This document shows, piece after piece, positions 12,473 to 63,115 of a stretch of DNA of 64,000 bases (positions are counted from its first letter, which is position 1; each line of letters begins with the position of its first letter). The stretch is from contig OZ360253.1 in assembly GCA_977017645.1 (NCBI GenBank), forward strand, positions 34,968,001 to 35,032,000. Direction: 5' to 3'. Below the pieces are notes generated by a model that made no database searches, was not told where the DNA came from, and saw only the letters and a program-made list of their open reading frames with translations. The position numbers were made by a program, and so were the translations under genes. Source of the DNA: Torpedo marmorata. Its lineage: Eukaryota.

Positions 12473-12494
12473 CTGCAACAGAAAGGCAAGAGAC

Positions 12495-35545: not shown

Positions 35546-35680
35546 CTGAAAAGGAAGAACACTCACATTACACAACATCCCATCAAATCGCAACATGAAG
35601 ACTCGCATTTATACGGCACACCAGCATCTTATCAAGTGTCCAGTCGTCTTTAAATCTTTGGTCATACTCATGTTTATACA

Positions 35681-39429: not shown

Positions 39430-39895
39430 ACCTCCTCTAACCCTTTCATTCCCGGAATCATCCTTGTGAACCTTCTCTGAACCCTCTCCAACGTCAGCAC
39501 ATCCTTTCTTAAATGAAGAGCCCAAAATTGCTCATAATACTCCAAGTGAGGTCTCACCAGTGTCTTATAAAATCTCAACATCACATCCCTGCTCTTATAT
39601 TCTATTCCTCTTGAAATGAATGCCAGCATTGCATTTGCCTTCTTCACCACCGTCTCAACCTGCAAGTTTACCTTCAGGCTGTCCTGCACGAGGACTCCCA
39701 GGTCCCTTTGCATCTGGGTATTTTCAATTTTCTCCCCATTTAAAAAAGTCTGCTCGTTTATTTCCTCTACCAAAGTGTGTGACCGCACACTTTCTGACAT
39801 TATATTTCATTTGCCTCTTCTCCGCCCATTCTCCTAATCTGTTTAAATCCTTCTGCAGTGTCTGTGTTTTCTCCACACTACCTGCTCCTCCACCC
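39430..39895 (-). mobile_element. CR1 LINE fragment abutting a Rex-tailed non-autonomous element (about 39085-39430)
   Basis: QRDLGVLV...LVRPHLEY...QRRFTRMIPG. Confidence 0.85.
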
Positions 39896-39985
39896 ACTCA
39901 GACAAACTAAAATGTTATCTCATGAACAAGAGAGAACTCAGTCGAGAACAACAGACCCATAATAGTGCATGAGATTAGCTCCTAC

Positions 39986-40172
39986 CTCTCAGCCACATTG
40001 GCATCATTTATCACTTTAGGTGGGACTTTCCAAGGACAACTGATGCGTCCTCCGGGGAGGCGCCGAAAGTCAAACTGGCAGCAGATTTTGGGGTCTGGTC
40101 CACAGGTGTGAGGAACGTCATAACTGTAGAAAGGCATCAGTTGACAGAAGATATCTGTGTTTGAGTCAGTGT
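39986..40172 (-). CDS. MAN2A2: MAN2A2 exon 7 (acid/base Asp)
   Basis: [61 protein letters not shown], 187 nt, AG/GT; translated by hand, not in the ORF track. Confidence 0.96.
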
Positions 40173-40871
40173 CTAGAAAAAAACATGGAGTTGCGGGAAG
40201 AAAAATATTTATTTAAGTCAAAAACTTCAGTTTTGAGAAATTTAAAATGTATGGAATTCCTCTCACATATTCAAATTGCGTGAATTAAAAGAAACAAAAT
40301 ACGACATTGGAACTGATCAAATCAGTATCTGGAAGATACAAAATAATCTGTGTCCTTTCTCCCCTGGCCCAGTTCCTCCCGAATTACATCGTGACATTTT
40401 GGATGTCCTCCACAGCTTCCACTTCTCCGGTCCCAACCAATTCATCTTCACAACAGTCATATCTCTACACTTCCTGTCACTATCAAGAGGGTCTAAGGAA
40501 GACCCAAACTATCCCTACCAATCACTCCACATCTTTGGCACTTTCCCATGAAATCACAGAAGATGCAACACCAGTCCATTCACCAATTCTCTTCTCACTA
40601 TCCAGGAACCCAGCCTTCCCAATTCACTCGCACTTCTTCCAAACTAGCCACTGTATCTGCTGTTTGCAATGCAGCCCCCAATGAGAATCCAAATGAAGAT
40701 TGGGTGATCACTTTCCAGGTAATCTGTATTTAGTCTGCAGGAGTGATGCTGAGTTTCCAGTTGCCTGCCACTTCATGTCTTCATCCTACTCTGACCTATG
40801 TCTGTGGCTTTCTTCACTGTTCGAACAAGACTGAATGCAGGCTTATGGAACAATACCTCATCTGCCCAAGG

Positions 40872-41555
40872 AAAGTAAAACATGAAAATCTGTAGACACC
40901 GTGGTTGAAGTAAAAAACACAAATGCTGGAGAAACTCAGCAGGTCAAACAGTGTCTTTTATGTAGCAAAGGTAGAAATACATAACTGACGTTTCGGGCTT
41001 GAGCCCTTCATCAAAGTATGAGAAAATGCCGGCAGGCATCCGAACAAAGGAGTGAGGGGGGAAGGGGGGTGGCAAAGGCAGGAGATGATAGGTGGAGAAA
41101 GGAGGGAGGGGACAGCAGCAAAGAGGGGGAGGAGGGATGGCTGGGTGGGTGGAAAAAAACAGGAAGGACAGGTGAGGGGGGAGGGGAAGGGAACGACAAG
41201 CAGGTTTAGTGGAAAGCAGAAAAGTCAATGTTAATGCCATCTGGCTGGAGAGTGCCGAGACGGAAAATGAGATGTTGTTCCTCCAATTTGCGGGTCGTCT
41301 GGGTGGGATAGTACATAAGGCCATGGACAGACATGTGAGTGTGGGAGTGTGACCCAGAATTGAAATGGCTGGCTACTGGGAGGTCGCTGTTGTTGCGGAC
41401 GGAGAGGAGGTGCTCAGCAAAACGGTCTCCCAATCTACGACCGGTCTCTCCGATGTAGAGAAAGCCACAAAGGGAACACCGGATGCAGTAAATAAGTTCT
41501 CTGGATGTACAAGTGAAGTGTAGTTTCACTTGGAAGGCCTGTTTGGGGCCCTGGA
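40872..41555 (-). mobile_element. Penelope-like 3' fragment (GIY-YIG domain plus tail)
   Basis: LIYCIRCSLCGFLYIGETGRRLGDRFAEH; nearly identical to the copies at 1-450 and 34470-35005. Confidence 0.92.
40980..41020 (-). ncRNA. Putative minimal type I hammerhead ribozyme (PLE-type), sense to the MAN2A2 pre-mRNA
   Basis: CATACT-TTGATGA-A-GGGC TCAA GCCC-GAAACGTC|AGTTATG: core boxes, stem II, palindromic ACGT stem III, GUC site, bulged stem I. Confidence 0.65.
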
Positions 41556-41604
41556 CCATGTTGTAGCCTTCTGGACTCAATATAATTTTTTTTAACTTTA
41601 GGTA

Positions 41605-41842
41605 ACCAATAGCCTGAATACGACTGGGATTGTCTGATCTCGGAAGCTAAGCAGGCACAGGACTGGTCAGTACTTGGAGGGGAGAACGCCAGGGAACACC
41701 AGGTGCTGTAGGTTTCTGTGAGGGGCGCTGGACAAAGTAGCGACCCTCTGTCTGCCTTACGGTAGACAAAAATTAAAGAATTTCATGAATGTTACATTCT
41801 AAATGTAGTATTACGTGACAATAATGGAACCTTTACCTTTAC
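41605..41842 (+). mobile_element. 5S rRNA-derived SINE, copy 2
   Basis: Nearly identical to 29693-29930, with the same start and end. Confidence 0.88.
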
Positions 41843-42290
41843 TCACTTTTTCTCCTGACTGTATCAGAATATTTGCACTATGATGCTGCCGCAAAACACC
41901 GAATTTCATGACTTGTTCATGACAATAAATTCTGATTCTGAAATTCTGATTCTGCTATTTCTGCCTGTCAGCATTTTGGCTTATTTTGTTTCCACAAGAA
42001 TGGCCTGGTCTGCTGGGTGTGTCCCTGTCACACATTATGCAGAGTACGAAGCTGTTCCATTTGCCCTGCTCATCCTTTCGTCACATACCCTCCTACTGAA
42101 AACTAACTTGTTTCTCTTGCTTAGTTCGACCCAGGATTTCAGATCCAAATCGTTAACCGCTTCTCTTTTCACAGATGCTGCCTGATCTGCTGAGGATTTT
42201 TTTGACACTTCGTTTTTATTCTAGCATTTGTGCATTTGTTTTCTGAATTTCAAATTCACGGGGCTTCTTTGAAGAGCTGTTCTCACCTAC

Positions 42291-42464
42291 CCCAGGTCTG
42301 CCTCCACATGAATTCCAGATTTTTGTTGGCTGCAAAGTGTTTTTTAATGGAGTAGTGCACTCTCTGGATGAGCATACTGGTCAAGTTGGAGCGCTTGAGC
42401 AGATAGGACATAGTTGAGCTGTGTCCAAAAGGATCGATTGCCCAACCCGATTTTGGGATCACTC
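42291..42464 (-). CDS. MAN2A2: MAN2A2 exon 6 (catalytic nucleophile)
   Basis: [22 protein letters not shown]...QRVHY...EFMWRQTW; the Asp of DPFGH is the GH38 nucleophile; 174 nt, AG/GT. Confidence 0.97.
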
Positions 42465-43473
42465 CTGCAAATACAAAATACAGGAACTCACTACAAGGTG
42501 TACACATCAAATCAACGGAAGTGTTGATCATCTCATGTCCATGGGAAGATAATATTACAAACATATTTTCAAACACTCCCAAAGAGAACAATTTTAAGAT
42601 AAAAGTGCAACTTCAATCTCTGGAATGGAAGTTTGTCACTTCAAGGGAATCTTTGCTGATCCAACGTCAGGGTCAGATGTTTTAATCTCAGAAACATTAA
42701 TGTTCCAGCTTGAACTGCAAAGTTCCCACAGGAAAGTTTAGAAACCCGGGGTGGGGGTCACTGCTAGCAACATTTTCTTTTCATTGATAGGATGAGGACA
42801 ACACTGACGAAGCTCACACACTGGCCATTCCTCTTGAGATGGTAGTGATGAACTACCTTCTTGAATTGCTACAATCAATGTGGTGAAGGTACTCCATAAC
42901 AATGCTGGATATGGAGCAGCACGAATTCACAACCTCAATAAGGAACAACCTTTTGCCAAATCATAACAATCTGCAACTTAAAAAAGGAACCTACAGATGG
43001 TTGTTTAACTTAAGCTTGCTGTCCTTGTCCTTTCTGGTGAGAGAGCTCACAGGACTGGGAGCTGCTGCCAAAGTATCCGTAATGAGCAACATGGAATATA
43101 TTGTATCCATGGTGAAATGGTGGAAAGAATTAATGATTTTGGATAGAGCTTGGGAAACCAAACACAGAAGACATCTTTGTTCTGGATGCTATCACGCTTC
43201 CAGGGAGTTATCTGAACTGCAATCACCTAGCCAAGAATATTGCCTCATCATCCAAAGATACGAGGTATACGTGTCAACTTGCGGGGAACTTAACAGTGTT
43301 TCCAACTCTTCCAGGCATGTTTGATGGGACAGGGTAGGAGATAAAGTTCAAACCCTTGCAGGCATGTTTGACGGGACAGTGTAGGAGATATAGTGTTATC
43401 TAAGACATGCTGACCTTGTCCTGGACCATTTGATGCAACACTGTAAATGGAGCTATACTCTGTACCTAATCTG

Positions 43474-43696
43474 AAGTAAAACACGAAAATTTGCAGACAC
43501 CGTGGTTGAAGTAAAAACACACAAAGCTGGAGAAACTCAGCAGGTCAAGCAGTGTCCTTTATATAGCAAAGGTAAAAATACATAAGCGACGTTTCGGGCT
43601 TGAGCCCCTCATCAAGGTATGAAAAATGCCGGAAGATGCCCGAACAGTAGGGGGGGGGGGGAGGTCGCTGAGTTTCTCCAGCTTTGTGTGTTTTTA
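43474..43696 (-). mobile_element. Penelope tail with a short inverted end and a 15-bp TSD
   Basis: TSD tctgtacctaatctg (43459-43473) / tctgtacctaacctg (43697-43711). Confidence 0.85.
43581..43621 (-). ncRNA. Putative minimal hammerhead ribozyme, sense to the MAN2A2 pre-mRNA
   Basis: CATACC-TTGATGA-G-GGGC TCAA GCCC-GAAACGTC|GCTTATG; one stem I mismatch. Confidence 0.55.
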
Positions 43697-43917
43697 TCTG
43701 TACCTAACCTGTGCTGCCATACCATGTGGAAGAAGCCATATAATTTGTGATTAGAAAATAGCTTTTTGTAAGTAGTTTGTAATTGACAATGGGAACACCG
43801 GTTTCAGGATCAATATTCTGCACTTTGACAAGAAAAGAAATCCGTATTTCAACATAATCTCTCAGATGTTAAAGCACCAGTTCATCAACTTCATGATTTT
43901 TCAACGTAGATAGTTAC

Positions 43918-44045
43918 CAATATTTTTCTCCAGCCACTGATGTCCTTCGATTAGTTGATCAACCATTGCAAAATAGTGAGAGTTAGCTTCATCCGTCATT
44001 ACCCAGCCTCCAGTTACAAACTCCAACTGACCATTAGCTGCCAGC
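43918..44045 (-). CDS. MAN2A2: MAN2A2 exon 5
   Basis: [42 protein letters not shown], 128 nt, AG/GT. Confidence 0.97.
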
Positions 44046-44451
44046 CTAGTGACCAAAACAAACATCGAGGAAAGTGGCAATAAATCACACATGACACAAA
44101 CTCAACTGGAGGAAAGATGCCCCTTTACTTTAAAATTAATTCCAAGATGAAACAACATCAACATATGATAATTGATTCTGCAGAATTAATTCTGGAGGTT
44201 GGTTCATGACAAAGTATTCTGAAGATACTCTGAAAGGTGTGAATAGTCTTTAGCCACCTATCCCAGAATGGCAACATAGACAATAAGTCATCAGAAAGAC
44301 TGACCCATACTGTCCCTGTTGATCCACAGCCTGTCTTGGCTTGATGACTGTCTACAGCACGAGAGGGTAACTGGGGCTGGGATTGGGAACTGTGCACCTT
44401 GAGCAACACAAGGCAATGCTTTCACAAAAGAAAATTCCCATCTCTGCATAC

Positions 44452-44623
44452 CGGCGGACAGCTGCCCTTTTCTGAGCATCAATGTTGTCCCACCACTTGG
44501 AGAAAAAGGAGATCTCTGCCCAAATAAAGCGACGCTTCGTGTCCTCCTGGAGTTTCAGCAGCATGTTGTTCAGGATGTGCTGCGTCTGGTCAAAGTAATA
44601 TTTGTCAAATGTCTTAATCCATC
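44452..44623 (-). CDS. MAN2A2: MAN2A2 exon 4
   Basis: [44 protein letters not shown]..., 172 nt, AG/GT. Confidence 0.97.
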
Positions 44624-45084
44624 CTGCAGAACAGAATCAGATTACAACTGTGAAGGTCCCAATGTGCAGTATTTTTTTTTAAATGTCTCAGAAACAATTG
44701 GAAATACATAAAGAGAATCACCCAGATATACAGCCAAAGCAACTCTATTTGTGTAAAGGTGACAATCTATGGCAGGATCAAGCAAATGACAATCAAATGA
44801 ACTGTACGAATCTGCTGCAATGGTTTACAGTACACCATAATGCTGAACAAAATGTCAAAGGTCAGTGCCTTTTAACTATGCTTAGCAGAACCATCAGGCT
44901 GTTGGGGTCTCCACTTAATATCACTGCTGAAAGAAGACAATTCAATATTCCCTGGATGTTACACAGAGTACAGTAAAACAGAGATAATCCTTTATCTGAT
45001 TGTTTTGAAATGCTGATGGCGTGACATCTGACTCACTCACTTGTCTGGAGTGTGAGCTGGGGGATTGGAGTGTGAAGGGTTATT

Positions 45085-45590
45085 TTACTGGGGTGTATGG
45101 GGTGTCTAAGGAGGGGTAGCACCTCTGGTGGGGCGGGGGGCCTGCCATGCCCTTTTCGGGCAGCTCATCCACCTTTGGTCCCCACCTGGCGCTCAGCTCT
45201 CACCTGTGGCTCCAAGTAGCGGCCACACCCCGGTAAACCACCTCGGCAGACGGGCTAAACCAGGTGAGGGTAGCCAACGGGTCTTCGAACCTCGGTGAGG
45301 TAGGTGATCTGTCTATCCCAGCGTGTGAAGTCTGGCCCTGGCGGATTGAGCGGAAGAGACCGATTAATGGTCCAACGGTCAAGAAGGCAGGCCCAGCAGG
45401 CGTTGTGGAGCGCTAAGAGCACGACAAGACACTTAGACGTCCTGGTCATCCACTGCAGCAAGAGAGGTCTCCAGCCGTAACGGTTGTCTGTGCCACTGGA
45501 TCAAGGTCTCTTCTGCCGAGAGAGTGGGACCGCCCCTGTGCAACTGCTGTTCCACTTAAAACTCCATCACACACAGGTTTCTGTTGTGCA
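45085..45590 (+). mobile_element. Probable RTE-clade LINE 5' region
   Basis: CpG-rich block with ctctcacctgtggctccaag...gggctaaaccaggtgagggtagcc, which resembles RTE 5' UTRs as I recall them (not verified). Confidence 0.55.
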
Positions 45591-46335
45591 ATTCATCTCA
45601 GTCCAAGTATCCACAGATGAACTGCACAACAGCGTGTCTTCTTCGAATCGAAAGACTACCAAAATAAACTGGGATGGAGGTCCAGATTCTGGACGGGGTG
45701 TACAGCCAGAGCTGGGGTCAGGATCAGGTTTGCATTTCAGCTGGTTTTGAAATACACAAGCTGAAACTCACTGGGTTCTACTAAGTCACCAGGTACATTG
45801 GAAAATTTATTATGCTACTGTGTAACAAGTTATAAAAAAAATTGAAATAAAAGTGTTTAGAGGTATTGGTAGGATTAACATCCAGAAAATCTGCAAGTCC
45901 AACACCAAAGTTCTGAGGGTGGGTGGATTATCGGAGCTTTACTGCAACAATCAAGACTGTGCATAAGCCCTTGACTTGAACCTCCAATGTCAGATGCAAG
46001 GAGTGGCTGATAAAAAAATCCAATCTTCCTGTAAGCTTTTTTTTTTTGCGCAGGGTGTTCTCACCAGCTCAACAAAGCTGACATGCCGCACATCTAACAC
46101 CAAAGCAAAAGCAAGTGTCCAGAGTTTACATCTCTACTGTTTTAGTCACAATCTAAACATACAGGAATCCTGTCAAGAATTTAACCAATCATTCTGACCC
46201 AAAATAAACCATTCTTATAAAACCACCAGCAATTTTCTAATAAACAGTAACACCCAAAACAAAAGACATCATTGTTATTTCATCATCATATCGATTTGAG
46301 GCAATTCTGGAAATCCTTCAATATGTTCCCCTTAC

Positions 46336-46480
46336 CTGGATCATTGTGGGAATGGGGCACCACAAACACCTGCAGTGGTTCATTGTCCCACTCACGCTGA
46401 TCATAGGTGATCTCAAAGCCCTGCTTCCAAGCACCGCCATCCACATTATCGAACTTCAGGGCTGAATAAACATCCAGCAT
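46336..46480 (-). CDS. MAN2A2: MAN2A2 exon 3
   Basis: [22 protein letters not shown]...[11 protein letters not shown](G), containing the GH38 Zn-binding HxD motif; 145 nt, AG/GT. Confidence 0.97.
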
Positions 46481-46731
46481 CTATAAGGGCAAAAAAAGAC
46501 ATACTGTATACGAAGAGAGCTTGAAATTATTAAATTGACAGTGAACAACTGGTCTGTGTCCCAAGGCACTTGCCAGAAATTCAGAAACATGGGAAGGGGA
46601 GAATGAGGCAGCCATCATATTCTCAGACAAAACCCAGGTGACCACAGGTTTCTGCTCATGCTCCAAGCACACTGAAGGATCTGGTATCTGATTGAAAATC
46701 TTAACTCCAAGTATCAGCACGGATTACTTCC

Positions 46732-48722
46732 TTTTTTTTTGGGAATATTTTATTTGTATTTTTTAAAGCCAAACATATTATCAATAACAAAAATAATACA
46801 TCATCAAATATAATATTCGTCTGTTGACTATTATACTAAAAAACAACAACAAAATTACAAACAAACGAAAACCCACCCACCCAATTCCCCCCTAAAAGAA
46901 AAAAAAAAGGAATAGAATAAGAAAAGGTTGAAATAGAAAAGGAAAGAAGACGTTGGAGGCTCGTCGTCCACCCCGCAGGCTTAAATTACTTGGCATACTC
47001 GGATTTCTGAAGAGGAAATGGACATAGGTCCTGGAGGTGAGGGGGGGGGCCTGGTTATAGATTTACAGGCATGTTGTAAATATGGAGTCCAAATCTTTAA
47101 AAATCTATTTCTAAGATTATAGGTAATCTTCTCAAGGGGAACACAACTGTACATTTCCTCATTCCATCTTGTCATACCTAGATGGGAATCAGACTTCCAT
47201 GTGACCGCTATACATTTCCTGGCCACCGCCAATGCGATCTTCACAAATTTTATTTGAAATTTTGACAGCCTCATCTTAGGTCTTACGCCAGAAATACTGC
47301 CCAATAGAAATAATTCTGGGCGTTGTGGGAACTGAATTTCTGTAATTTGTTCTAAGAGTTTCCCTAAGTCCATCCAGAAAGGTTTTACTTTGGGGCATGA
47401 CCAGGTTAAATGTAAAAACGTTCCTATTTCTTTGCCGCATCTAAAACATTTATCTGATATTTCTGATTTAAATTTATTAAATTTTTGCAGCGTGAGATAC
47501 AACTGGTGCAAAAAATTATATTGCACCAGTCTGTATCTCACATTTATTGTGTTTTTCATACTGTCCCGACATAAGTCGGACCAGTTTTGTTCATTAATTA
47601 TTATATCCAAGTCTGACTCCCATCTCTGTCTAGATCTATGTAGCCCCTGTTTAGGGGTTCCTTTTTGTAGTAAAAGATAGGCTGCTGAAATAAACTTCTT
47701 TGTGATCCCTTTTCGAATCAAAGACTCCACTTCACTGCATGGGCCCAATTTATCCCTTAAGTAAGATCTCAGCTGGAAATAGCAGAAGAGTGTATTATTC
47801 ATAATACCATACTTATTTTTTAATTGTTCAAATGACATAAGTTGTCCCTGCCCATAACAATCCTCGACACATCTGATCCCTTTCCGGGACCAGACGTCCA
47901 GGATCTTATTATCCATTGTAAAAGGTATACACCTATTTTGAGCCAGGGGCGTTTTTGGAGATAACCTCCCCTTATTCCCAATTTGATAATTTATTTTATA
48001 CCAGGTATCAATTATGTGTTTCAACAGGGGGGTTTCTTTCACACAAGATATTAATTTTTAATCCCATTTGTATATAAAGTCTTCTGCTATCTTTTCTCCC
48101 ACCTTATGCAGTTCCATCTTTACCCAGGAAGGCTTGTCTTCCCCTTCAAAGAAGGAGGTGACAAATTTCATTTGGGCTGCCCAATAATATTTTTTGAAAT
48201 CTGGAAGTTGTAAACCTCCCAGTTTATATCTCCATGTTAATTTTTCCGTGGAGACTCTATCTACCTTACCTCTCCAAATGAACTTCCTGATATATTTATT
48301 TAATTCTTGAAAGAACCCTCGAGGCAATGGCATAGGTAGTGTTTGGAAAAGATATTGGATCCGTGGCAATATATTCATTTTTATACAATTGACCCTGCCA
48401 ATAAGTGTTATTGGCAGTGCCGTCCATCTGTTAAGATCCTTTTCAGCTTTTCTAAGCAAGGGGAGGTAATTTAACTTATACAAATCTTGTAAGTTGTTAT
48501 TTGTTTTAATGCCTAAATATTTTAACCCATTTGCCGGCCACTTAAAACTTATATTCCTTTGGTATTGAGTATAATCTCCACCCGTAAGTTGCATTATTTC
48601 ACTTTTGTCCCAATTTATCTTATAACTGGAAATTTTCCCATAATCTTCCAATTTTAAGTGCAATTTTTCTAAAGAAACTGCTGGTTCTGTCAGGTATATC
48701 AGTACATCATCCGCAAATAACG
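46732..48722 (-). mobile_element. L1-clade LINE, 5'-truncated ORF2 with A-rich tail
   Basis: LFADDVLIYL, GYKIN-like motif, YLGI, GGLQLPDF, CFRC...HLTWSC zinc knuckle; internal stop at about 48058. Confidence 0.93.
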
Positions 48723-49089
48723 GATTACTTCCTTTGACCATGAGAGTCACAGAAACAGCTGTGAGAGGACAGAGAGCAGGCGAGGCAAGAGTGGCCATCA
48801 ATGACCTCACTGAGTAATTGAATCTGCTCAGCTCAACCCAGCCTGATTGTTACAGCTCAGGAGAGAGGGGATGGCAAGAGAAGGCATGTGGAAATGCCCT
48901 GTTCCCTCCTAGCAGAAGATTTAAAAAATGGCAGCACTGCCGCTGGTGTGGATCCTGGAGAGTGGAGACAGAGGGCTGCTCCAAAGGGTTGAACCGCCCG
49001 GTCCTAATGCCAGCGGTTCCATACAGGTGTTAAATAGCCTGTTAGAGGAGCCGATGGTGTTCTTAACTAAAATCCTGCAACCTTGGGTG

Positions 49090-49647
49090 TGTGCCCAAGA
49101 TGGCGGCGCCTGTGCTCAGCAGCGGCCACGAGGGGTTGCAGACTCTGGGGAGCAGCAGACCGGCGCAGGGCACCAGAAAGGGGGAGAGCACCCACTGTTG
49201 AGAAGGAGGCAGAGGAGATGACACGGTGACGGACTGGCAAGGGGCTCAGCGGTCGGGGGACCCGCACTGGCTGCTGGAGACTGGCTCGTGGGAACCAGGT
49301 ATCGGAGCTGGGATTCAAGAGGTTGCTGAGGGCAAGAAGGTTTCTCGAATGGCCTTGGGCACTGAAGGCTTCCTGATCGTTGGAGGTTTGGATCTGGAGC
49401 CTGGGCTGCCGATGGATCAAACAGGGGTCTGTGTGGGTGCAGAGGCTGCGTGAGCGCTGGAGGCGAATCCACGAACACTCAGTGACTCTGAAGGGACTCT
49501 CTTTTGCTTCTCTTTCTCTTGTACTGTGAGGGGCACCGGGCGACACTAATGGCGAATCTTAGTCTGTCTTACGGCAGGCAGAAGGCAATTTCGTGTAAAT
49601 ATTACATGTTCTGTACTATTACATGACAATAAAGGAATCTTGAATCA
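49090..49647 (+). mobile_element. Non-autonomous retroelement with a Rex1-type tail
   Basis: Starts caagatggcggcg; ends catgacaataaaggaatcttgaatc; relatives at about 39085-39430 (-) and 63165-63415 (-). Confidence 0.7.
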
Positions 49648-49724
49648 TTTATCCCCACCCATGCTGCAAGCCCGTTCATAATACCCATGAGTCAGAGAGG
49701 ACCTGTACAAAGCAGCACAGTACA

Positions 49725-49883
49725 TGACCTTGGATAGGGGAGAGCGTTTGGGGGGGGGGGGGGGGGGGTGTAGGAGGGTGATGCGCTCATTATATCACTG
49801 TTCACTCAGAAGAACTGTATCAGTGATATAATACATGCATCACCCTACTCCCCCCCACCAACGCCCTCCCCTATCCAAGGTCA
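49725..49883. repeat. Fold-back / MITE-like palindrome
   Basis: tgaccttggatagggg...cccctatccaaggtca with inner inverted pairs. Confidence 0.8.
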
Positions 49884-51303
49884 CAGGATAAAGAACTGCT
49901 TTATTGATCCTACGGTTTTTGTCTAGATTAGCATACCTGCAGGTCACCCACACACTGACCAATGGTTGAGGAACACATCACTGCCTGAAATGAATCCTCT
50001 GCAGATTTGAACACTTGCCTGACGTGATTTGAATTTGCTTCTCTAATTTACCTTTTTCCTTCCACTTCCTGTCAATCTAAATAGTTACTTCATTGCTGCC
50101 TCTTCCTGTGGAAATCCCACATTTCTCCCAGATAATATTTTGAAATTCAGAATCAGCCCGGCTCTCCACTGAACTGCTTCCAAAGTCAGAGCATCACAGC
50201 TTGGGCACTGGACTTGTTTCTCAATGTGGTTTTAAATTTCTGGACAGAAACTATCAGAGGCAGGAAGGCAGCCTAACATTGAAGCAGGTGATTTTTACCA
50301 CTATTGGCATTCAAAGGTAATGGGAGACCTTTTATCACCCCCCCAATGAGAACAAATTTGCATTTATGTCTTCAATGTGCCTTGTGACTAATGCACTGGT
50401 TTTGAACTTGTGCTACTTAAACACTAATACAACAACACTAAAAGTTCACAAAACAGATTGGTGAGGAATGAACATTGGCCAGGAAATTACAATGTCATTC
50501 TTCAGATAGTGCCTCAAGGTTTTACATTTACTTTGACATGCAGACAGGACTTTGTTTCAGCTCTCATTTGCAAGGTGACTCAGTGTTGCACCCAAACATT
50601 TACCCAGGTTATATCACCAAATCCTTGAGTAAAGTGGCAGTGATGGGGGAAGGGGCTGCAGGATCAAAACATATACGCCAGTGTATAAGACGAGGCATGA
50701 AACTTAAAAGTGTCACCCCAAAACCAGGGGTCGCCTGATACGGGAAGTATAAAATCCGAACCTTGACAGCGAAGTCTCAGCGCTCCCCTTGGCAAGTATA
50801 CAACACGAACCTTAACAGCGAAGTCTCAGGGCTCCCCCGCGAGGTCCATCCGCCCAGTCCGACTGCCGTCAGCTCTGTACAGGCTTTAAACGGCCAGTTA
50901 AAGGAGCCGACGGTGGTTTATTTTAAAAGATGCTAATAAAATTTAAACCTTTTCTGGGTAATTCGCTTTAAAAATATTGTGACAACATCACTCCAACTGG
51001 TCAGCGGTAAGTGCTAGACTTGGGGTAGTCTTATACAGTGAGTGTAGCTCAAAACCAACATTGTAAGTGGAAATTATGGGGATTGTCTTATACGCCGGCA
51101 TATACGGTAGATTATCAAGACTGGATAAAAACTGCGATCACATTGAAGACTGACAGTTTAAAATTAATCGTACCTTCTAATCAGTTTTACAATCTCATCA
51201 ACATAGCTTTGGATAAAGGAGAGTGTCACTGATCCATATGGATTAGAAACAGATACAACCCAGCAGAAATATGCAGGGTGAGCATTCAATCAGCTTTCCC
51301 TAC

Positions 51304-51558
51304 CTGCAGGTCAGTATTTTGTTCTTTATTCCCGAGGGCAAACTGACAATCCTGTGGAAACACTGAGAGAAAGGTCTGGTGATTGTCGGTTGGTAAAACC
51401 CAGGAGCCATTCCCTTGCAAAGCCAGCAGACCTGGAGGCGCATCTGCATTCCCGGTGAGCTCCAGGACAGAGTCCTTGATGTGGCTGATGATTTGGTGAT
51501 TTTCCTCCAAAAGCTGCTCCAACTGCTCAATGCGATTTTGCAGCACCGAGATCTGATT
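51304..51558 (-). CDS. MAN2A2: MAN2A2 exon 2 (stem region)
   Basis: [35 protein letters not shown]...[16 protein letters not shown], 255 nt, GTGTAG| acceptor, CAG|GTAGG donor. Confidence 0.96.
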
Positions 51559-52794
51559 CTACACGGGCGAAACAGAGGAGAACGTTGGGGAATGTTACAT
51601 TGTGATTTTGCAGCACCGAGATCTGATTCTACACGGGCGAAACAGAGGAGAACGTTGGGGAATGTTACATTGTGATTTTGCAGCACCGAGATCTGATTCT
51701 ACACGGGCGAAACAGAGGAGAACGTTGGGGAATGTTACATTGTGATTTTGCAGCACCGAGATCTGATTCTACACGGGCGAAACAGAGGAGAACGTTGGGG
51801 AATGTTACATTGTGATTTTGCAGCACCGAGATCTGATTCTACATGGGCGAAACAGAGGAGAACGTTGGGGAATGTTACATTGTGATTTTGCAGCACCGAG
51901 ATCTGATTCTACACGGGCGAAACAGAGGAGAACGTTGGGGAATGTTACATTGTGATTTTGCAGCACCGAGATCTGATTCTACATGGGCGAAACAGAGGAG
52001 AACGTTGGGGAATGTTACATTGTGATTTTGCAGCACCGAGATCTGATTCTACACGGGCGAAACAGAGGAGAACGTTGGGGAATGTTACATTGTGATTTTG
52101 CAGCACCGAGATCTGATTCTACACGGGCGAAACAGAGGAGAACGTTGGGGAATGTTACATTGTGATTTTGCAGCACCGAGATCTGATTCTACACGGGCGA
52201 AACAGAGGAGAACGTTGGGGAATGTTACATTGTGATTTTGCAGCACCGAGATCTGATTCTACACGGGCGAAACAGAGGAGAACGTTGGGGAATGTTACAT
52301 TGTGATTTTGCAGCACCGAGATCTGATTCTACACGGGCGAAACAAAGGAGAACGTTGGGGAATGTTACATTGTGATTTTGCAGCACCGAGATCTGATTCT
52401 ACATGGGCGAAACAGAGGAGAACGTTGGGGAATGTTACATTGTGATTTTGCAGCACCGAGATCTGATTCTACACGGGCGAAACAGAGGAGAACGTTGGGG
52501 AATGTTACATTGTGATTTTGCAGCACCGAGATTTGATTCTACACGGGCGAAACAGAGGAGAACGTTGGGGAATGTTACATTGTGATTTTGCAGCACCGAG
52601 ATCTGATTCTACACGGGCGAAACAGAGGAGAACGTTGGGTAATGTTACATTGTGATTTTGCAGCACCGAGATTTGATTCTACACGGGCGAAACAGAGGAG
52701 AACGTTGGGGAATGTTACATTGTGATTTTGCAGCACTGAGATCTGATTCTACACGGGCGAAACAGAGGAGAACGTTGGGGAATGTTACATTGTG
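51531..52794. repeat. 70-bp tandem repeat, 18 near-identical copies, overlapping the intron 1/exon 2 junction
   Basis: Unit tgtgattttgcagcaccgagatctgattctacacgggcgaaacagaggagaacgttggggaatgttacat; period exactly 70 bp; a few single-base variants. Confidence 0.99.
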
Positions 52795-53235
52795 CATCCA
52801 GAATTCAGCAAATTTTACTGTTTTAATTTGCTGTCTTCAGAATAGACGAAAAGATATATTGTACACTTGTCCAACATATCCTCAAAAGCTTTCAACAATC
52901 ACTTCTTCTAGACGTCAAGGACCTGCTTAAAGTAATGTGAAGGTCACAGACCCACGGTGCACTTCCAGATGTACAACATTTTCTGGCAAGGAATACAGAA
53001 CTCTACACAAGTCAATCCATACATGATCAAATTACTGTACTAAACTATAAGAGCATATGCACTATCATTTAACACGCATTTCATTCTCAATAAGATGATA
53101 CTGCAGTTAAAGTGCAACAAGCCAATCATATATTCCCATTTCTGATCTGGCACCTGAAATTTACAAGGATAACAAAAAAAATCTTCAATCTGAGACTATT
53201 TACTTGACACTAATTAGGTGTTATACACTTTATGT

Positions 53236-53412
53236 CAGGGGTGGCCAACCTTTAAATTTTTAATTTAGACATACAGCACGGTAACAGGCCATTTCGGCCC
53301 ACAAGTACGTACCGGGGGTGTAGGTTAATTGGGCGGCACGGACTCGTGGGCTGAAATGGCCTGTTACCATGCTGTATGTCTAAATTAAAAATTAAAAGGT
53401 TGGCCACCCCTG
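53236..53412. mobile_element. hAT MITE with a perfect 8-bp TSD and a SINE-derived palindromic interior
   Basis: TIR CAGGGGTGGCCAACCTTT; TSD ctttatgt at 53228-53235 and 53413-53420. Confidence 0.9.
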
Positions 53413-54639
53413 CTTTATGTGAACACTGACATCCTGAAAAATCCAAACTCACAAACCCCCATTCCCTCCATTACCATTCCAACACCAACTCCAGCTCAAT
53501 GAAGAAATAGAGTTTGTCCTTCTTCCTTCCCATCCCCTCTTGATTTCATGAACTCAGCAAGGCTCCCAAATTTAGCTTCCTCATCCTTATCAATGGTTAG
53601 CACAGTGTTCAATTCTGGGCACATTATTCTGAGAAGGATGTGAAGGCATGGGGCAGTCCAGAAGAGATTCACAAGAATTATTCTAAAAATGAAGGACTTC
53701 AGTTACATGGATTGACTGGGGAAGCGATGGGTGGGAGTGGGAGGATATGGGGGGATATCCTTAGAGCAGGCAGTGATGATGGACAGTTGAAAGTAATATC
53801 CAAAATCTAGGAAAGGCCCCCCTCAGGGTAAATAAAAATGATGTCATGGGCAGAAGAATTGAGAACCAGATGATTAAGACAGGAGATTGGCATTGGAACC
53901 AAATGAGAAAAGGCCTTTTCTTTAATGCAGCAAGTTGTTGTGTTTTAGAACTCATTGCCTCAAGGATGCTGGAAGCATTTTTAATCACAACCTTCACAAA
54001 GGTATTGGATAAATAGTGCAGAGCTGAATGTGAAGAGCCAGAGTATGGGGCCAATTGGATTGGTCTTACAAAGAGAAGCACAAGATCAATGAACCAAAAA
54101 TAATCTTCTCATATTCTCTAACAACTTGAAAAAAATCAAGGCACTCATCTTCTAAAGACATTTTTTCTCTCTCAAAACATATTGTTACATTAATATAATA
54201 AGAGACATCCTGAACAACAGGAATGGGACGGGTGAAAGAAAACCTGTCTTGGAGTTTAAACATCCTCTTCCTTTGGGCTGGGAAGGAGGTGATGATAGGC
54301 ATGAGAAGAGAATAATACATTATGCCAGGATCGGCTGGGTTTTTTAAAATTTGTGTTTATGCATCAGCAGAAAGTAAACTCGATGGCTCATGTTTAGCAA
54401 CTAACCTGACACAAGGCTATTCATATCCTGATCAGTATCCTCTTCCCATCCTTCCCTCATACCTGCTGTGTTCTAGGTGATTTACACGCTTCTTTCATTC
54501 TTTCTTAGTGGTTGCAAACCCTGCCTCACCACCTTGGGTCTGCCCACCCACTTATTCCCCACTTCTTTAGTAATAGCATCTTATGTCATGTCCTTGCATC
54601 TTCCACTTTAGCTGATCAGATAACTCTCACACATTGGTT

Positions 54640-55130
54640 AGATAGCACTTGCAGTATTGTGTTCCATTCTGGTCGCCACATGACTGGAAAGATGTGGCAG
54701 CATTAGAAGGAGTGCAGAAGAGATTCATCAAAATATTGCCTGGAATGCAGGGTGTTGGTTACAAGGAGAGATTGTTTTTACTGCAGCACAGTAGTTTGAG
54801 GAGTGACCTACAGAGATTTATAAGATTATGAGGGGCATAGATGAGGTAGACATCACCAAAGTTCTTTTCCTAGGATGGGTAAGACTAAAATTAGAGTGCA
54901 TAGATTTGAGAAGTGAAAGAAAAATGAGATCTGAGGGACAAGTTTTTGCCCACACAGGGTGTGGTTATATGAGATGTTAAAGGCAGATACAATTATAACA
55001 TTTAAAATGCATTTGGACAGGTACTTGGATAGCAAAAGAGGCTTACACACCTAATGCAGGCAAATAAGATCAGCGTAGATAGACATCATGAGGCTGGAGG
55101 GCCTTCTTCTCTGCTGAACAGCTCTATGAC
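54640..55130 (+). mobile_element. Decayed CR1 3' fragment
   Basis: QYCVPFWSPH...QKRFIKILPG; further CR1 pieces at about 23620-24120, 28425-28675, 33300-33570 and 58175-58500. Confidence 0.8.
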
Positions 55131-55967
55131 TATTTGAAAGTTACATAGAAAAGGAGGGCTGAATAATGAAACTTGGTACTACATCATGTACACAATAAAA
55201 CATCGGACGCACAGGTCACTGAATTGGCTACTACAGAAATAACAAAGGTCAAATGAACTTCTCTGGAAAGAACCCTAATTTATTTTGCATATCCGGCAAC
55301 TGTTCATCCCGTTGTATCCGTGCAAGCCAAAAATTGCATATTCCAATTAATTTTGCTTCCCAGCTATTGACCCGTTGATTGTAAACTATGGTTCTGCAAG
55401 AGAAAATCTGACAAATGTGCGAGGCGGTAGGTTAATTTGCCATCTATCATAAATTGCCCTGTGTGTGTAGGTGAGTGGGTGAATCTCAGGTGAGTTGATG
55501 GGAATGTGGTGGGAATAAATAATGGGATTAATGTAGGATTTGGCAGTGAGTTTCAGAGCCCCACTATTTATTAAGAAACAATTTCTGTTGCAATCTTTCT
55601 CTCATCAATCCACCCTTAATTACTGTCCTATCTGCGAGGGAAATAGGATCTTGCTGCACAAACTGTCTAGTTATGTCATAATTAAATGATATATCAGATA
55701 GAGACGAGTTTCAGTCTGATGGTCTGCTGCTCCAAACTGTCACTAGTCCACTGGGCAACACAAGCGGCAGGAGGCCCATTAATTTGCCAAATCAGAAATA
55801 AATATTTACTTTTGTGATTGCATATAAAACTCCAACTGAGTTTATCCAATGACAAAAACTGTCTGTGAGAAGAGACTAACAGAGGATGAAGTCTATTACA
55901 AGAATAAATAAATTCACAATGTAGAGGACAAGGATAATCAAGTGCTCAACTTGAATAATACTGGGCA

Positions 55968-56249
55968 AAAGTATAATCACAACGCTGGAGAAACTCAGCA
56001 GGTCACACAGTGTACTTAATACAGCAAAGATAAAGATACATAACCAGTGTTTTGGGCTTGAGCCCTTCAAGGTATGAGCAAGATGTTGGCAGGCGCCCAC
56101 TCATACCTTCATGAAGGGCTCAAGCACGAAATGTTGGTGATGTATCTTTATCTTTGCTGTATATAGTACACTGTTTGACCTGCTGTGTTTCTCCAGCGTT
56201 GTGTTTTCACTTCAATCACTGTGTCTGCAGACTTTTGTGTTTTACTCCT
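55968..56249. mobile_element. Fold-back Penelope-tail element with a 13-bp TSD
   Basis: TSD ataatactgggca (55955-55967 / 56250-56262); inverted arms. Confidence 0.87.
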
Positions 56250-59089
56250 ATAATACTGGGCACCAGTGTAAAAACTCAGCTAAACTGAACGGGTGACAAA
56301 GATGCAGATCCATTCCTCACAAGCTTCAAAGTGCAAAGTGGGGGCAACACGCTCTTGCACCATCCCCCTAACTGTTTACCAATGCAGTAAGTCATCTTAA
56401 ATTCTGTCATTTAATCCATGACAGGAGAGCAACTAGTGATTGTGAAATAATTCTTCAGAAGGGGAGGGGTGGTGTAAAAGCTGCCCGGGAGAAGGTGATA
56501 GGCAGAAAACAGAGATTAATTATCCATTATTATAGTGCAATCAATATCAGCAGATGCATTAGACGCAATGCAAATAACATATTTGATAAAAATGCATGAT
56601 AAATGGTTCAAGAAACACATAACATTTATTATTGTATACCAGACAGTTGATCCATTTGTTAATAATTGTGCTGCTGCTCTATCAGGGGACACACACATTT
56701 GTCAATGGAATGTGCTTTGTCCTCTGCATTACTTGTTTCCTTACAGGTACATGATTAATGCCTCAAATAATGCAGAATTGAGCCACATTCAGTTGCATCC
56801 TTGGGCTGTTGAGTATCACAGAGAGATATATAATGACTGAAAGTGCTCAAGGTGAAGGGGAGAGGGAATCAATGTCCCTGCAAGCATTAACAATCCTGCT
56901 GGGAAAAATATAGAGCGGTGACATTCAGGTAAATTACCAGCTATGTTTAAATAGATCCAAACCCCACAAAAGAAAAGTATTTGCATCAAATCAAGTGCAC
57001 TTACCGGTAATTATTAATTATCTTAACAGAAAAAAATGACAGGAAAAATAAAGTTAGCAAAAGTTTATTTCTTTTACCACAAAATTAATCAAAATGTACT
57101 TTAACTTATTTATATTAGGATTGCTTTTTATCTCTGGATTTGCTTTTTATTTGTCAATTTTCAGGATGTTGGCATTCACTGGAAACACCTTCAAATTAAT
57201 TTACATTTTGCACTATCTTTTGTCTTTTAAACTGCTTATTCTTAATGCTGGTGTATTAGTTAGGCATTGTAAGAGTGAGTTTCAAGCAACTGGAAAATTT
57301 GCATATCCGTCATCTACTAATCTCCGTAAATGCCGGATACCAGGGGTTTTACTGTATATTTGAAAGTCAGGATGTCATTGACTTGGAAGAATAGCTGCTG
57401 ATTTTCCCATGTTCTTTGTCATTATGCATCATGATATGGAAGTCACAGGTTTGGGAGGTGCTCTCTGAGTAGCCTAGGTGAGTAACCTCCAACGCATTTT
57501 ATAAATGTCACACCCAACAGCTAATGGTAAAGGGGGAGAAATTAAGTTTAGGGTGGTGAATGGGATGTCAATCAAAAGGGCTGATTTGTCCTGGATTGTG
57601 CTGAGCTCTTTGTGTGTTGTTATCCAAAAGATTCCATCTCACTCCTGACTTGTGCCTTGCAGATGGTGCTAAGTGTATGGGAGGGAAGTCACTCCACATA
57701 CTTGTAGCTATAGCATGCAAGCAGCTGTATCGAGTCAACGGTGACCCCCTACCTGCACATCCCTCTCCAGGATGTTGATAACAGGCACCCTTCACTGGCA
57801 ATGCCTCTGAATGTCAAGGGTTGGTTCGAACCTTTGTTGTTGAAGGTCATTTTGTAGCTTGAATGTTACTTGTCTTTTATCAGCCTGTGTCCAAACATTA
57901 TCTAGCTCTTGCTATTCAGAATTTCCTTCTTAATTTGCTGTCGAGGTTACAGATGGAATTGTGCATTGTTCAATTGTCAGAAGACATCCCGACTTCCAAA
58001 CTTACGAGGAAGATTGTGTCCTTTGTTGTGTGCTAATAAGAAACTGTGACAACTGATTCTCATTGGAAATGCAAGTAGGTGACTTACACAAAATATTAAC
58101 ATTAATCTTCTAATATTGCATTAAATATTTTGCATTTCAAATACAAACACATTCATTCGTCCATTGGGGATTCTGGATTATGAGAGGCATAGATAAAGTG
58201 GACACTTTTTCCCTGGGACGACAGTAGCAAATACCAGAGGACATGTGTGTAAGGTGAGGGAAGATTAGGGGAGACGTCAGGGGTAAGTTTTTTTTTTATA
58301 CACAGAGTAGTGGGTGCCTGGAATGCATTTCCAGGGGTGGAGGCTGGGACAATTGGGGCGTTAAAAGACTCTCAGACATGCACATGGATGCAAAAAAATA
58401 GGGAATAGGTAGGGAAGGTTTAGATTGTTGAGGTTCATACAGGTTGGCACAACATCGTGGGTCGAAGGGCCTGTACTGTGCTGCAATGTTCTATGCTCTA
58501 AGAATACCAAAGATCATCAAGTCTATCGTGCTCAATGATTTGAACGTTCTCTGACGACTCACACCCTTTCATTGCAATGGTCTAGATTTTTTCTTATGTT
58601 TTTATTAACACAACTTAATCTTCTTGCATCATCTTTTCAAGCAGATCTTCTAGCTTATTACGGCTCATTGTGAGGTGTTTTGTTTGCTATTTAATAAGCA
58701 GCTTAAAACGGTGAAAGCACTGACAGCAGAGGTACAAGGTTCAGGTCCCTGTTTGGCTATGGTTGGGTGTTGCACCCTGGTTAATCAGGTTCAAAACTAG
58801 GTGCCTGGGGCCTAGTGTCAGGTCACAAAAGGCATCAGCGGTGGAAATGGTCGACAGGACTGGGGTGACCTGATGGTGGAAGATGCCCAGATGTTGCTGG
58901 GTGCCCAAGGATACGGGGTGATGCTGGGTGCTGGGGATACAGGGTGATGCTGGGGTTTACGGGGTGATGCTGAGTGCCAGGGACACAGGGTGATGCTGAG
59001 TGCCAGGGATACAGGGTGATGCTGTGTGCCGTGGATACGGGGTGTTGCTGGGTGCCGGGGTGATGTTGTGAGCTGGGGTGATGCTGGGT

Positions 59090-59393
59090 GGTCACTATCC
59101 TGGAGGATCTTTCCTGGACCCAACATACCAATGGCATCGTGAAGAAAGCACGTCAGCGCCTCTACTTCCTCAGGAGTTTGCGGAGGTTTGGTATGACAAC
59201 GGAAACCCTGGCAAATTTCTACAGATGTGTGGTGGAAAGTATGCTGACCAGCTGCATCACGGTCTGGTATGGGAACACCAATACCCCTGAGCGTAAAGCC
59301 CTGCAAACGGTAGTGGACACAGCCCAGGATATTACTGGCAAAATCCTCCCCACTATTGAGTACATCTACAGGGAATGCTGCCGTCGGAGAGCA
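59090..59393 (+). mobile_element. Internal Rex1/Babar fragment embedded in the minisatellite
   Basis: EDLSWTQHTNGIVKKARQRLYFLRSLRRFG...CITVWYG. Confidence 0.88.
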
Positions 59394-59394
59394 T

Positions 59395-62300
59395 TGGGTG
59401 CCGGGGTGATGCTGGGTGCCGGGGTAATGCTGGTGTGACGTTGGGTGCCGGGGTGATGTTGGTGTGATGGGGTGATGCTGGGTGATGGGGTGATGCTGGG
59501 TGATGGGGTGATGTTGGGTGATGTTGGGTGATGGGGTGACGCTGGGTGATGGGGTGACGCTGGGTGATGGGGTGACGCTGGGTGATGGGGTGATGTTGGG
59601 TGATGGGGTGATGCTGGGTGATGGGGTGATGCTGGGTGATGGGGTGACGCTGGGTGATGGGGTGACGCTGGGTGATGGGGTGATGTTGGGTGATGTTGGG
59701 TGATGGGGTGATGCTGGGTGATGGGGTGACGCTGGGTGATGGGGTGATGTTGGGTGATGGGGTGATGTTGGGTGATGCTGGGTGATGGGGTGACGCTGGG
59801 TGATGGGGTGACGCTGGGTGCCGGGGTGATGCTGGGTGACGCTGGGTGATGGGGTGACGTTGGGTGATGGGGTGATGCTGGGTGATGGGGTGATGTTGGG
59901 TGATGTTGGGTGATGGGGTGAAGTTGGGTGATGGGGTGACGTTGGGTGATGGGGTGACGTTGGGTGATGGGGTGACGTTGGGTGATGGGGTGACGTTGGG
60001 TGATGGGGTGACGTTGGGTGATGGGGTGACGTTGGGTGATGGGGTGACGTTGGGTGATGGGGTGACGTTGGGTGATGGGGTGATGCTGGGTGACGCTGGG
60101 TGATGGGGTGATGCTGGGTGATGGGGTGACGCTGGGTGATGGGGTGATGCTGGGTGATGGGGTGATGTGGTGATGCTGGGTGACGGGGTGATGCTGGGTG
60201 AGGGGGTGACGGGGTGATGCTGGGTGATGCTGGGTGACGGGGTGATGTTGGGTGATGGGGTGATGTTGGGTGATGGGGTGATGTTGGATGATGCTGGGTG
60301 ATGGGGTGATGGGGTGATGTTGGGTGATGCTGGGTGATGGGGTGATGCTGGGTGATGGGGTGATGCTGGGTGATGGGGTGATGCTGGGTGACGTTGGGTG
60401 ATGGGGTGATGCTGGGTGATGGGGTGACGCTGGGTGCCGGGGTGATGCTGGGTGATGGGGTGACGCTGGGTGATGGGGTGATGCTGGGTGATGGGGTGAT
60501 GTTGGGTGATGTTGGGTGATGGGGTGATGTTGGGTGATGGGGTGATGCTGGGTGATGGGGTGATGTTGGGTGATGTTGGGTGATGGGGTGATGCTGGGTG
60601 ATGGGGTGATGTTGGGTGATGTTGGGTGATGGGGTGATGTTGGGTGATGGGGTGATGCTGGGTGATGGGGTGATGCTGGGTGATGGGGTGACGTTGGGTG
60701 ATGGGGTGACGTTGGGTGACGGGGTGATGCTGGGTGATGGGGTGACGCTGGGTGATGGGGTGACGTTGGGTGATGGGGTGATGCTGGGTGATGGGGTGAC
60801 GTTGGGTGATGGGGTGACGTTGGGTGATGGGGTGACGTTGGGTGATGGGGTGATGCTGGGTGATGGGGTGACGCTGGGTGATGGGGTGACGCTGGGTGAT
60901 GGGGTGATGCTGGGTGATGCTGGGTGATGGGGTGATGCTGGGTGATGGGGTGATGCTGGGTGATGGGGTGATGCTGGGTGATGGGGTGACGCTGGGTGAT
61001 GGGGTGATGCTGGGTGATGGGGTGACGTTGGGTGATGCTGGGAGACGGGGTGATGCTGGGTGATGGGGTGACGCTGGGTGATGGGGTGACGCTGGGCGAT
61101 GGGGTGATGCTGGGTGATGGGGTGATGCTGGGTGATGGGGTGACGTTGGGTGATGCTGGGAGACGGGGTGATGCTGGGTGATGGGGTGACGCTGGGTGAT
61201 GGGGTGACGCTGGGCGATGGGGTGATGCTGGGTGATGGGGTGATGCTGGGTGATGGGGTGATGTTGGGTGATGGGGTGATGCTGGGTGACGGGGTGATGC
61301 TGGGTGAGGGGGTGACGCTGGGTGACGCTGGGTGATGGGGTGATGCTGGGTGATGGGGTGATGCTGGGTGACGGGGTGATGTTGGGTGATGGGGTGATGC
61401 TGGGTGATGGGGTGATGCTGGGTGATGGGGTGATGCTGGGTGACGGGGTGACGCTGGGTGATGGGGTGATGTTGGGTGATGGGGTGATGCTGGGTGATGG
61501 GGTGACGCTGGGTGATGGGGTGATGCTGGGTGACGGGGTGATGCTGGGTGCCGGCGTGACGCTGGGTGATGGGGTGACGTTGGGTGATGGGGTGACGTTG
61601 GGTGATGGGGTGACGTTGGGTGATGGGGTGATGCTGGGTGATGGGGTGACGTTGGGTGATGGGGTGACGTTGGGTGATGAGGTGACGTTGGGTGATGGGG
61701 TGATGTTGGGTGATGGGGTGACGTTGGGTGATGGGGTGACGTTGGGTGATGGGGTGACGCTGGGTGATGGGGTGACGTTGGGTGATGGGGTGACGTTGGG
61801 TGATGGGGTGACGTTGGGTGATGGGGTGACGCTGGGTGATGGGGTGACGTTGGGTGATGGGGTGATGCTGGGTGATGGGGTGACGTTGGGTGATGGGGTG
61901 ACGTTGGGTGATGGGGTGACGTTGGGTGATGGGGTGATGCTGGGTGACGGGGTGACGCTGGGTGATGGGGTGACGCTGGGTGCCGGGGTGACGTTGGGTG
62001 ATGGGGTGACGTTGGGTGATGGGGTGACGCTGGGTGATGGGGTGACGTTGGGTGATGGGGTGATGCTGGGTGATGGGGTGACGCTGGGTGATGGGGTGAT
62101 GCTGGGTGATGGGGTGACGTTGGGTGATGGGGTGATGCTGGGTGATGGGGTGACGCTGGGTGATGGGGTGACGTTGGGTGATGGGGTGACGCTGGGTGAT
62201 GGGGTGACGCTGGGTGATGGGGTGATGCTGGGTGATGGGGTGACGTTGGGTGATGGGGTGATGCTGGGTGATGGGGTGATGCTGGGTGATGGGGTGACGC

Positions 62301-62625
62301 TGGGTGATGGGGTGATGCTGGGTGATGGGGTGACGTTGGGTGCCGGGGTAACGTTGGGTGATGGGGTGACGTTGGGTGCCGGGGTGACGCTGGGTGATGG
62401 GGTGACGTTGGGTGATGGGGTGACGCTGGGTGACGGGGTGACGTTGGGTGACGTTGGGTGATGGGGTGACGCTGGGTGATGGGGTGACGTTGGGTGATGG
62501 GGTGACGTTGGGTGACGGGGTGACGCTGGGTGATAGGGTGACGTTGGGTGATGGGGTGACGTTGGGTGATGGGGTGACGCTGGGTGACGGGGTGACGCTG
62601 GGTGACGCCGGGGTGATGCTGGGAG
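59395..62625. repeat. G-rich 18-bp minisatellite (gggtgatggggtgaygyt)n with interspersed 10-bp half units
   Basis: Directly visible; a degenerate extension lies at about 58860-59092. Confidence 0.99.
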
Positions 62626-63115
62626 CCCGTGACGAGCACCCTTGGGCGCCGGTGCGTGCGGTGACAGGCCGGCCGGACGCTGCCCTTACCCGGGGGAAGC
62701 TGACGCCGCCGTGCCGCCGGCCCGGATCGTGCTGCACCCGGTCCAACATGATGTAGAGCGAGAAGACGGCCACGCAGAAGATGGCGCCGCTGCACACCGT
62801 CACCTGCTTCCTCAGCTTCATGCTGCCGCTCCCCGGCAGCGCCGCTCTCGGCCGCCCGCGCCTAGGCCCCTCGCCGCCGCCGCCGCTCCATCCCCGGCAC
62901 GCCAGCGGAGGCCTGCTGGCTCCGTCAGAGCCGGGGGGCGCGGAGAGAGGCGACAGCGAGCTCAACTCCGAGCACCTCCTCCCACCCCGCTGCTCCCAGC
63001 ACTGACCGCCCGCCGGCTCCAACCGCGCCACAGCGCCCCTAGCGACGCGGAGGACCAAACCCCCACTGCCCCCCCTCTCCTCCCACACGCCCGCTCTTTA
63101 CCTCCATCTAGTGGT
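62620..63115 (-). promoter_or_regulatory. CpG island / probable MAN2A2 promoter and 5' UTR
   Basis: Very GC- and CpG-rich, with GC-box-like motifs, over exon 1; CTCF-like CCACTAGATGGAG at 63102-63114 (minus). Confidence 0.75.
62690..62821 (-). CDS. MAN2A2: MAN2A2 coding exon 1 (cytoplasmic tail and type II signal anchor)
   Basis: [44 protein letters not shown], 132 nt, donor CGG|GTAAG. The N-terminus matches MAN2A2 ([33 protein letters not shown]) rather than MAN2A1. Confidence 0.97.

Follow-up and report, generated by a model that had tools for sequence, protein, structure and literature searches.

A minisatellite made of copies of the MAN2A2 intron 1/exon 2 junction carries 18 intact acceptors, of which probably only the last is used

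Which acceptor would the spliceosome choose when the 3' splice site of an exon is preceded by 17 near-identical copies of itself? This question is raised by the MAN2A2 locus of Torpedo marmorata, which we analysed in a stretch of 64,000 nt (the window, to which all positions refer). A minisatellite of 18 units of 70 bp occupies 51534..52794 on the minus strand, and each unit joins the final 45 nt of MAN2A2 intron 1 to the initial 25 nt of exon 2. TRF, run on the window, returned 51534-52794 with a period of 70, 18.0 copies, 98% matches, 0% indels and a score of 2466. The copies lie head to tail, and on the gene strand each opens with 45 nt whose end is formed by a pyrimidine tract and TAG, and continues with 25 nt that code for NQISVLQN. 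Their AGs fall at 51560-51559 + 70k (k=0-17), and 18/18 are intact. The preliminary description had claimed an 18-fold tandem repeat of the exon 2 3' splice site, which the TRF copy number and the AG positions bear out; its 70-bp minus-strand unit and its AG grid of 51559-60 + 70k matched exactly on re-reading.

The authentic acceptor belongs to unit k=0 (51534..51603, minus strand), where the AG at 51560-51559 follows the pyrimidine tract and a candidate branch site, GTAAC, would lie ~37 nt upstream. Units k=1-17 (51604..52793, minus strand) supply 17 decoy acceptors with just 25 nt of exon sequence behind each, and use of any of them would lead to an early stop. Every unit also contains a weak donor-like 9-mer, AAT/GTAACA (51593..51601, minus strand), that would close a 30-nt in-frame micro-exon behind the preceding decoy AG. 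Ten of the 18 units have the k=0 sequence and the other eight a single substitution each; none of the eight touches an AG, a count without the power to judge selection against decoy AGs. Six nucleotides into exon 2 lies a second AG (TAG/AATCAG/; 51552-51558, minus strand), a would-be in-frame alternative acceptor that is missing from units 14 and 16. Recursive (ratchet) splice sites consist of an acceptor with a donor immediately behind it (AG/GT); we rejected this identity for the array, as AATCAG follows each of its AGs and AG/GT is absent. Rfam gave no match at the gathering score across 50800-53600. A search of the 6.22-Gb assembly listed at least 18 matches to the unit, all at the MAN2A2 locus, and at least one to exon 2; neither a dispersed repeat family nor a second haplotype of the unit was among the genome matches listed.

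The host gene, MAN2A2 (alpha-mannosidase IIx), spans 12323..62821 on the minus strand and has 22 coding exons, which form an intact 1146-aa ORF when the k=0 acceptor is used. Coding exon 1 (62821-62690, minus strand; 44 codons) ends at a donor GT at 62689. Exon 2 (51558-51304, minus strand) is 255 nt long, in phase 0-0, and encodes residues 45-129, ahead of the GH38 N domain; it ends at the donor CAG/GTAGGG (51302..51303, minus strand), with the GT at 51303. It is the longest of the 20 internal MAN2A2 exons and is flanked by introns of 11,131 nt (intron 1) and 4,823 nt (intron 2). The top protein matches to an exon 2 query were cartilaginous-fish MAN2A2 (alpha-mannosidase IIx). The protein read through k=0 is identical to sawfish MAN2A2 at 1076/1146 positions (93.9%), without a gap, and is 95.9% identical to MAN2A2 of Narcine, in whose orthologue the GH38 domains start near residue 166; these identities point to a ray, probably an electric ray. 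Of the 141 proteins retrieved, 124 show the exon 1/2 junction FPR/[SN]QISVLQ, one carries an additional Q and 16 fall outside the pattern.

Several other features of the gene were observed along the way. At 51437 the window codes for Pro85, and 4/4 aligned sequencing-run contigs carry the His base, like sawfish. Between exons 19 and 20, at ~17160-17245 on the minus strand, lies sequence matching a 27-aa cassette exon of skate and catshark MAN2A2 isoforms, and the exon 19 donor is the sole MAN2A2 donor without both -1G and +5G. An 18-bp minisatellite of ~184 copies (59395-62623) begins 66 nt past the exon 1 donor; its gene strand is rich in C and A and contains 484 YCAY motifs, a motif of the NOVA type. 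With this array near the exon 1 donor and the 70-bp array at exon 2, intron 1 has arrays at both ends.

By translation, the conserved MAN2A2 protein is obtained from the k=0 AG only, and the other 17 AGs give early stops. The k=1 acceptor yields 77 aa before a stop, k=2 yields 183 aa with a stop within exon 3, and each of k=3-17 yields 101 aa, ending at a TAA inside the repeat. These outcomes agree with what was first proposed for the locus: that only k=0 produces MAN2A2 (its 1146-aa ORF aligns gap-free to the sawfish protein), that k=1 and k=2 shift the frame and that k>=3 runs into the in-repeat TAA. Decoy use would lengthen exon 2 to 325-1445 nt (325 for k=1, 395 for k=2). Since the decoy-derived stops lie far upstream of later exon junctions, transcripts containing them are NMD candidates under the usual rule, which concerns stops upstream of later exon junctions. 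Exon 2 is symmetrical in phase (0-0), so skipping it keeps the frame and leaves 1061 aa in which residues 45-129 are gone and the anchor and GH38 domains are retained. The 30-nt micro-exon from a decoy AG to AAT/GTAACA is likewise in frame and without a stop, and would add 10 residues. Given these two in-frame routes, which the preliminary description had overlooked, an effect of the array need not act through NMD.

Contigs from other sequencing runs bear on the origin of the array. A 1015-nt contig from organism B aligns in two parts, record 1-545 to 51059-51603 and record 477-992 to 52725-53240; these placements overlap by one unit, which indicates that in B the upstream intron runs straight into a lone unit. 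In the alignment that gave the second of these placements, three of four runs (X1, X6 and X20) gave none, an outcome that is no proof of absence. B differs from the window at 18 positions in 992 bp (~1.8%, hand count). One unit in so close a relative makes the array derived, and, as read from these alignments, it is a lineage-specific expansion from a single-copy boundary. A 1514-nt contig from organism C extends past 51603, and no backward joint is listed in its alignment, which suggests that C is a candidate for a second single-unit case. The ends of the duplication show imperfect microhomology (C-ACAATG vs C-GCATTG). One 70-bp tandem duplication at this microhomology may have seeded the array, and the repeat could then have expanded through slippage or unequal exchange.

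The differences among the units also speak to whether the array exists as assembled. There are five distinct variants, two of which are common to several units (three and two copies). CpG transitions account for 2/5 distinct variants (p=0.013 vs uniform changes), and variant units are concentrated upstream (p=0.008, post hoc). Mean divergence between units is 1.2%, with no indels; this is comparable in size to the distance to organism B, although CpG sites inflate the former. CpG sites also set organisms B and C apart from the unit, in C's case at the base that varies in units 4, 6 and 12. Variation at this level implies that the array persisted long enough to mutate, and the sequence data suggest that it is real and has been tolerated for some time, its variants looking like germline mutation. 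The preliminary description had read its single-base variants as the mark of a real array and not an artefact; as "probably real" this stands, supported by the shared and CpG variants and the lack of indels, which is evidence at the level of the assembly. That the array is an assembly artefact and the true locus has one or few units is very unlikely. In favour of an artefact, the 24 sequencing runs listed include none of this individual or clearly of this species, none containing half of the query words (best shares 0.48 and 0.42); against it, the shared variants, the CpG-type changes (one at the same base in organism C), the upstream polarity and the absence of indels all argue for a real array, the window contains no N, and scaffolds of 42-323 Mb suggest a long-read assembly. 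One contig from run X6 has GATC inserted where GATC already occurs (window 51230 and 51549), likely through Hi-C religation, which would make the insertions artefacts and non-biological.

To place the array among repeats of the same genome, we used a baseline of 704 kb (the window, 400 kb of flanks and 24 spots of 10 kb, mostly on contig C76). It contained 16 repeats with a period of at least 40 at >=90%, five of them with at least five copies, the MAN2A2 array included. The five long arrays include one of 67 x 9.3 and one of 69 x 6, and arrays of 60-75 bp are common nearby. A rough expectation, which assumes 150,000-250,000 acceptors and no selection, is ~5-43 acceptor-containing arrays per genome; an acceptor array would thus be rare per gene yet expected per genome. 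In an informal reading of five neighbouring arrays by eye in six frames, adjacent coding exons were not evident. The literature, searched mostly outside subscription papers, yielded no acceptor-side array of such copy number in a jawed vertebrate. Two-copy duplications lie at 8881-8974 (46 bp) and 20526-20674 (74 bp); the former contains the acceptor-like TTCTCTCTCCACAG, and no gene is tied to TTCTCTCTCCACAG. Sampled stretch L036 has a 73-bp x 3.8 array at 403-679 that, with its 3' flank, resembles by eye a retroelement leader with a gag-like frame behind it, and in L006 (1-10000), which lies 1 Mb into C76, a 45-bp satellite runs throughout the 10 kb.

What, then, do the decoys do? From gene architecture and precedent, we consider it likely that the 17 upstream acceptors of this boundary-derived minisatellite are ignored and the last is used, the array being silent or nearly so and a tolerated by-product. 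Exon definition from the donor at 51303 would select k=0: with long introns on either side of the exon (11.1 and 4.8 kb), U1 at 51303 would be expected to pair across the exon with the nearest acceptor. The exon made from k=0, 255 nt, is already the longest internal exon of the gene, and the decoys would enlarge it to 325-1445 nt. In the available text of PMC9225289, sites nearest across the exon are favoured between long introns and exons longer than ~500 nt are poorly included; the same text describes the preference for upstream 3' sites between long introns as "significantly reduced" and leaves a clear reversal unstated, a point against the exon-definition reading. The decoys would be further disfavoured by having 25 nt of exon behind each and no good donor. 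On crude matrices built from MAN2A2's own 20-21 sites, the best GT in the unit scores 2.9, a value reached by 255/2087 intronic GTs. The acceptor matrix leaves the array sites indistinguishable (decoys 8.1-9.6 vs 8.8 for the real site), which counts against silence. In favour of silence, the real acceptor is equalled or surpassed on the same crude scale by 8 further AGs of intron 1 and by 32 within introns 2-21, which together span 34.9 kb. A minor leak to k=1 or k=2, removed by NMD, would fit a nearly silent array. Hiding of the decoys by RNA folding was rejected as an explanation: the AG is unpaired at 0.04-0.27 in decoys vs 0.16 at k=0, with no consistent difference, another point against silence.

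Spliced contigs from two further organisms, A and D, cover 51304-51559 and nothing of 51560-51603, as expected of a k=0-type site, neither organism being established as an array carrier. The contig from A (run X1) has 2 differences in exon 2 and a depth of 7.9; its RNA status is guessed and it may come from another species. That from D (run X7) has 11 differences, and its loose ends match exon 1 (29/30) and exon 3 (30/30). None of the 24 sequencing runs listed is recorded as RNA, which says nothing on expression. Two readings had been offered at the outset, copy number as a heritable dial on productive mRNA and silence by exon definition; architecture and precedents support the latter better.

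A leaky array, in which k=1 and k=2 (exons of 325 and 395 nt) are used substantially, NMD takes part of the mRNA and MAN2A2 output is tuned by the length of the allele, appears unlikely. The decoys are near-identical to the real site, an early stop follows from every one of them, and in the available text of PMC1557585 the nearest two pseudo-sites of the human 6-16 and CBS donor arrays are used; but the acceptor-side mirages of amphioxus are reported silent in what is available of PMC3087553 and PMC3902484, and a second allele is absent among the genome matches listed. Should competition be confined to the one or two decoys closest to the exon, copy number above 3 would matter little, which would make the array a switch and not a dial. 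We are similarly doubtful of a broader possibility, that the 17 decoys tax MAN2A2 splicing measurably and in proportion to how many there are, trapping U2AF/U2 and causing intron 1 retention or in-frame exon 2 skipping, with a leak of NMD isoforms besides. If true, a jawed vertebrate would possess in this array a natural acceptor-side rheostat, passed on by inheritance, for its N-glycan processing, and the skipped form would be a stemless 1061-aa Golgi mannosidase IIx.

The purely kinetic version, in which U2AF and U2 snRNP sit on several decoys simultaneously and this slows intron 1 removal or causes in-frame skipping to the 1061-aa enzyme, is quite unlikely. Skipping does preserve the frame and the GH38 domains, but exon 2 is present in 21/21 aligned cartilaginous-fish proteins, a biased set that derives from a search with exon 2; and splicing in extracts was inhibited when duplicated 3' sites were occupied together, but on short in vitro constructs, as given in the available text of PMC5389562. 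Far less probable than any of these is a route in which a decoy AG pairs with the AAT/GTAACA 30 nt on, inserting 10 residues in frame into the stem in a Rogers-type intron birth. The 30 nt keep the frame and contain no stop, and the donor score of 2.9 is within the range of the lowest real MAN2A2 donors (2.0, 2.3 and 3.8); however, the donor has neither -1G nor +5G, as in 1/21 real donors, and 255/2087 intronic GTs score equally high. From this donor to the next AG there are 40 nt, shorter than the minimum usual in vertebrates, so the route would have to jump a unit. The likely outcome remains selection of k=0 with the decoys passed over, and the importance of the array would be greater if copy number were shown to alter mRNA output.

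Tandem or duplicated splice sites have been described before. In human CBS 844ins68, 68 bp of an intron/exon junction are duplicated and the distal site is used (available text of PMC2630376); that allele has two copies, the upstream one with c.833C, whereas the MAN2A2 array has 18. Engineered beta-globin transcripts with duplicated 3' sites spliced exclusively to the distal site, with poor efficiency in vitro, and double occupancy of the sites was inhibitory (PMC5389562, available parts). They resemble the array in that a short exon piece (14, 55 or 205 nt) lies behind the upstream copy, and differ in having two copies on short in vitro substrates; their poor splicing is a point against silence. 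Human donor-side minisatellites occur at F7 IVS7 (37 bp), CBS IVS13 (31 bp), 6-16, LMNB2 and PDGF; according to the available text, 3/5 use the authentic site alone and 2/5 (6-16 and CBS) also the next two pseudo-sites (PMC1557585), the latter again a point against silence. As in MAN2A2, the terminal unit there contains the authentic site, whose further copies extend into the intron. In these human arrays the exon-nearest site is mostly the sole one used. Those arrays are of 5' sites, for which scanning and exon definition predict the same one; in the acceptor array of MAN2A2, by contrast, the site transcribed first (k=17) and the one closest to the exon (k=0) are at opposite ends, 1.2 kb apart and sequence-identical. 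The array is therefore a natural test, in which junction reads would separate first-come or scanning choice from exon definition, with a single-unit relative as the control.

The closest counterparts are the "mirage" minisatellites of amphioxus, tandem copies of exon-intron boundaries in Adh3 (units of 10-72 bp), troponin C, the globins BflGb6 and BflGb9, and PGBD5, which leave splicing normal in the available text of PMC3087553 and PMC3902484. The MAN2A2 array shares structural features with them: its head-to-tail unit straddles a host exon-intron boundary, its terminal unit is authentic (k=0 gives the conserved protein) while the intronic units keep the splice signal (18/18 AGs), and it descends from a single-copy boundary, as seen in one unit on one contig of organism B. 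By structure, as far as the sequence allows, it is a mirage, a kind already described, and its layout is that of BflGb6, where an intron's 3' end together with exon 2's 5' portion is repeated. Haplotype length variation and somatic instability are demonstrated for the amphioxus mirages in the parts available, whereas the MAN2A2 array is known from one haplotype. It differs from them in occurring in a jawed vertebrate, with 18 copies at 98% identity and every AG intact, and so offers a clean vertebrate case of a known oddity.
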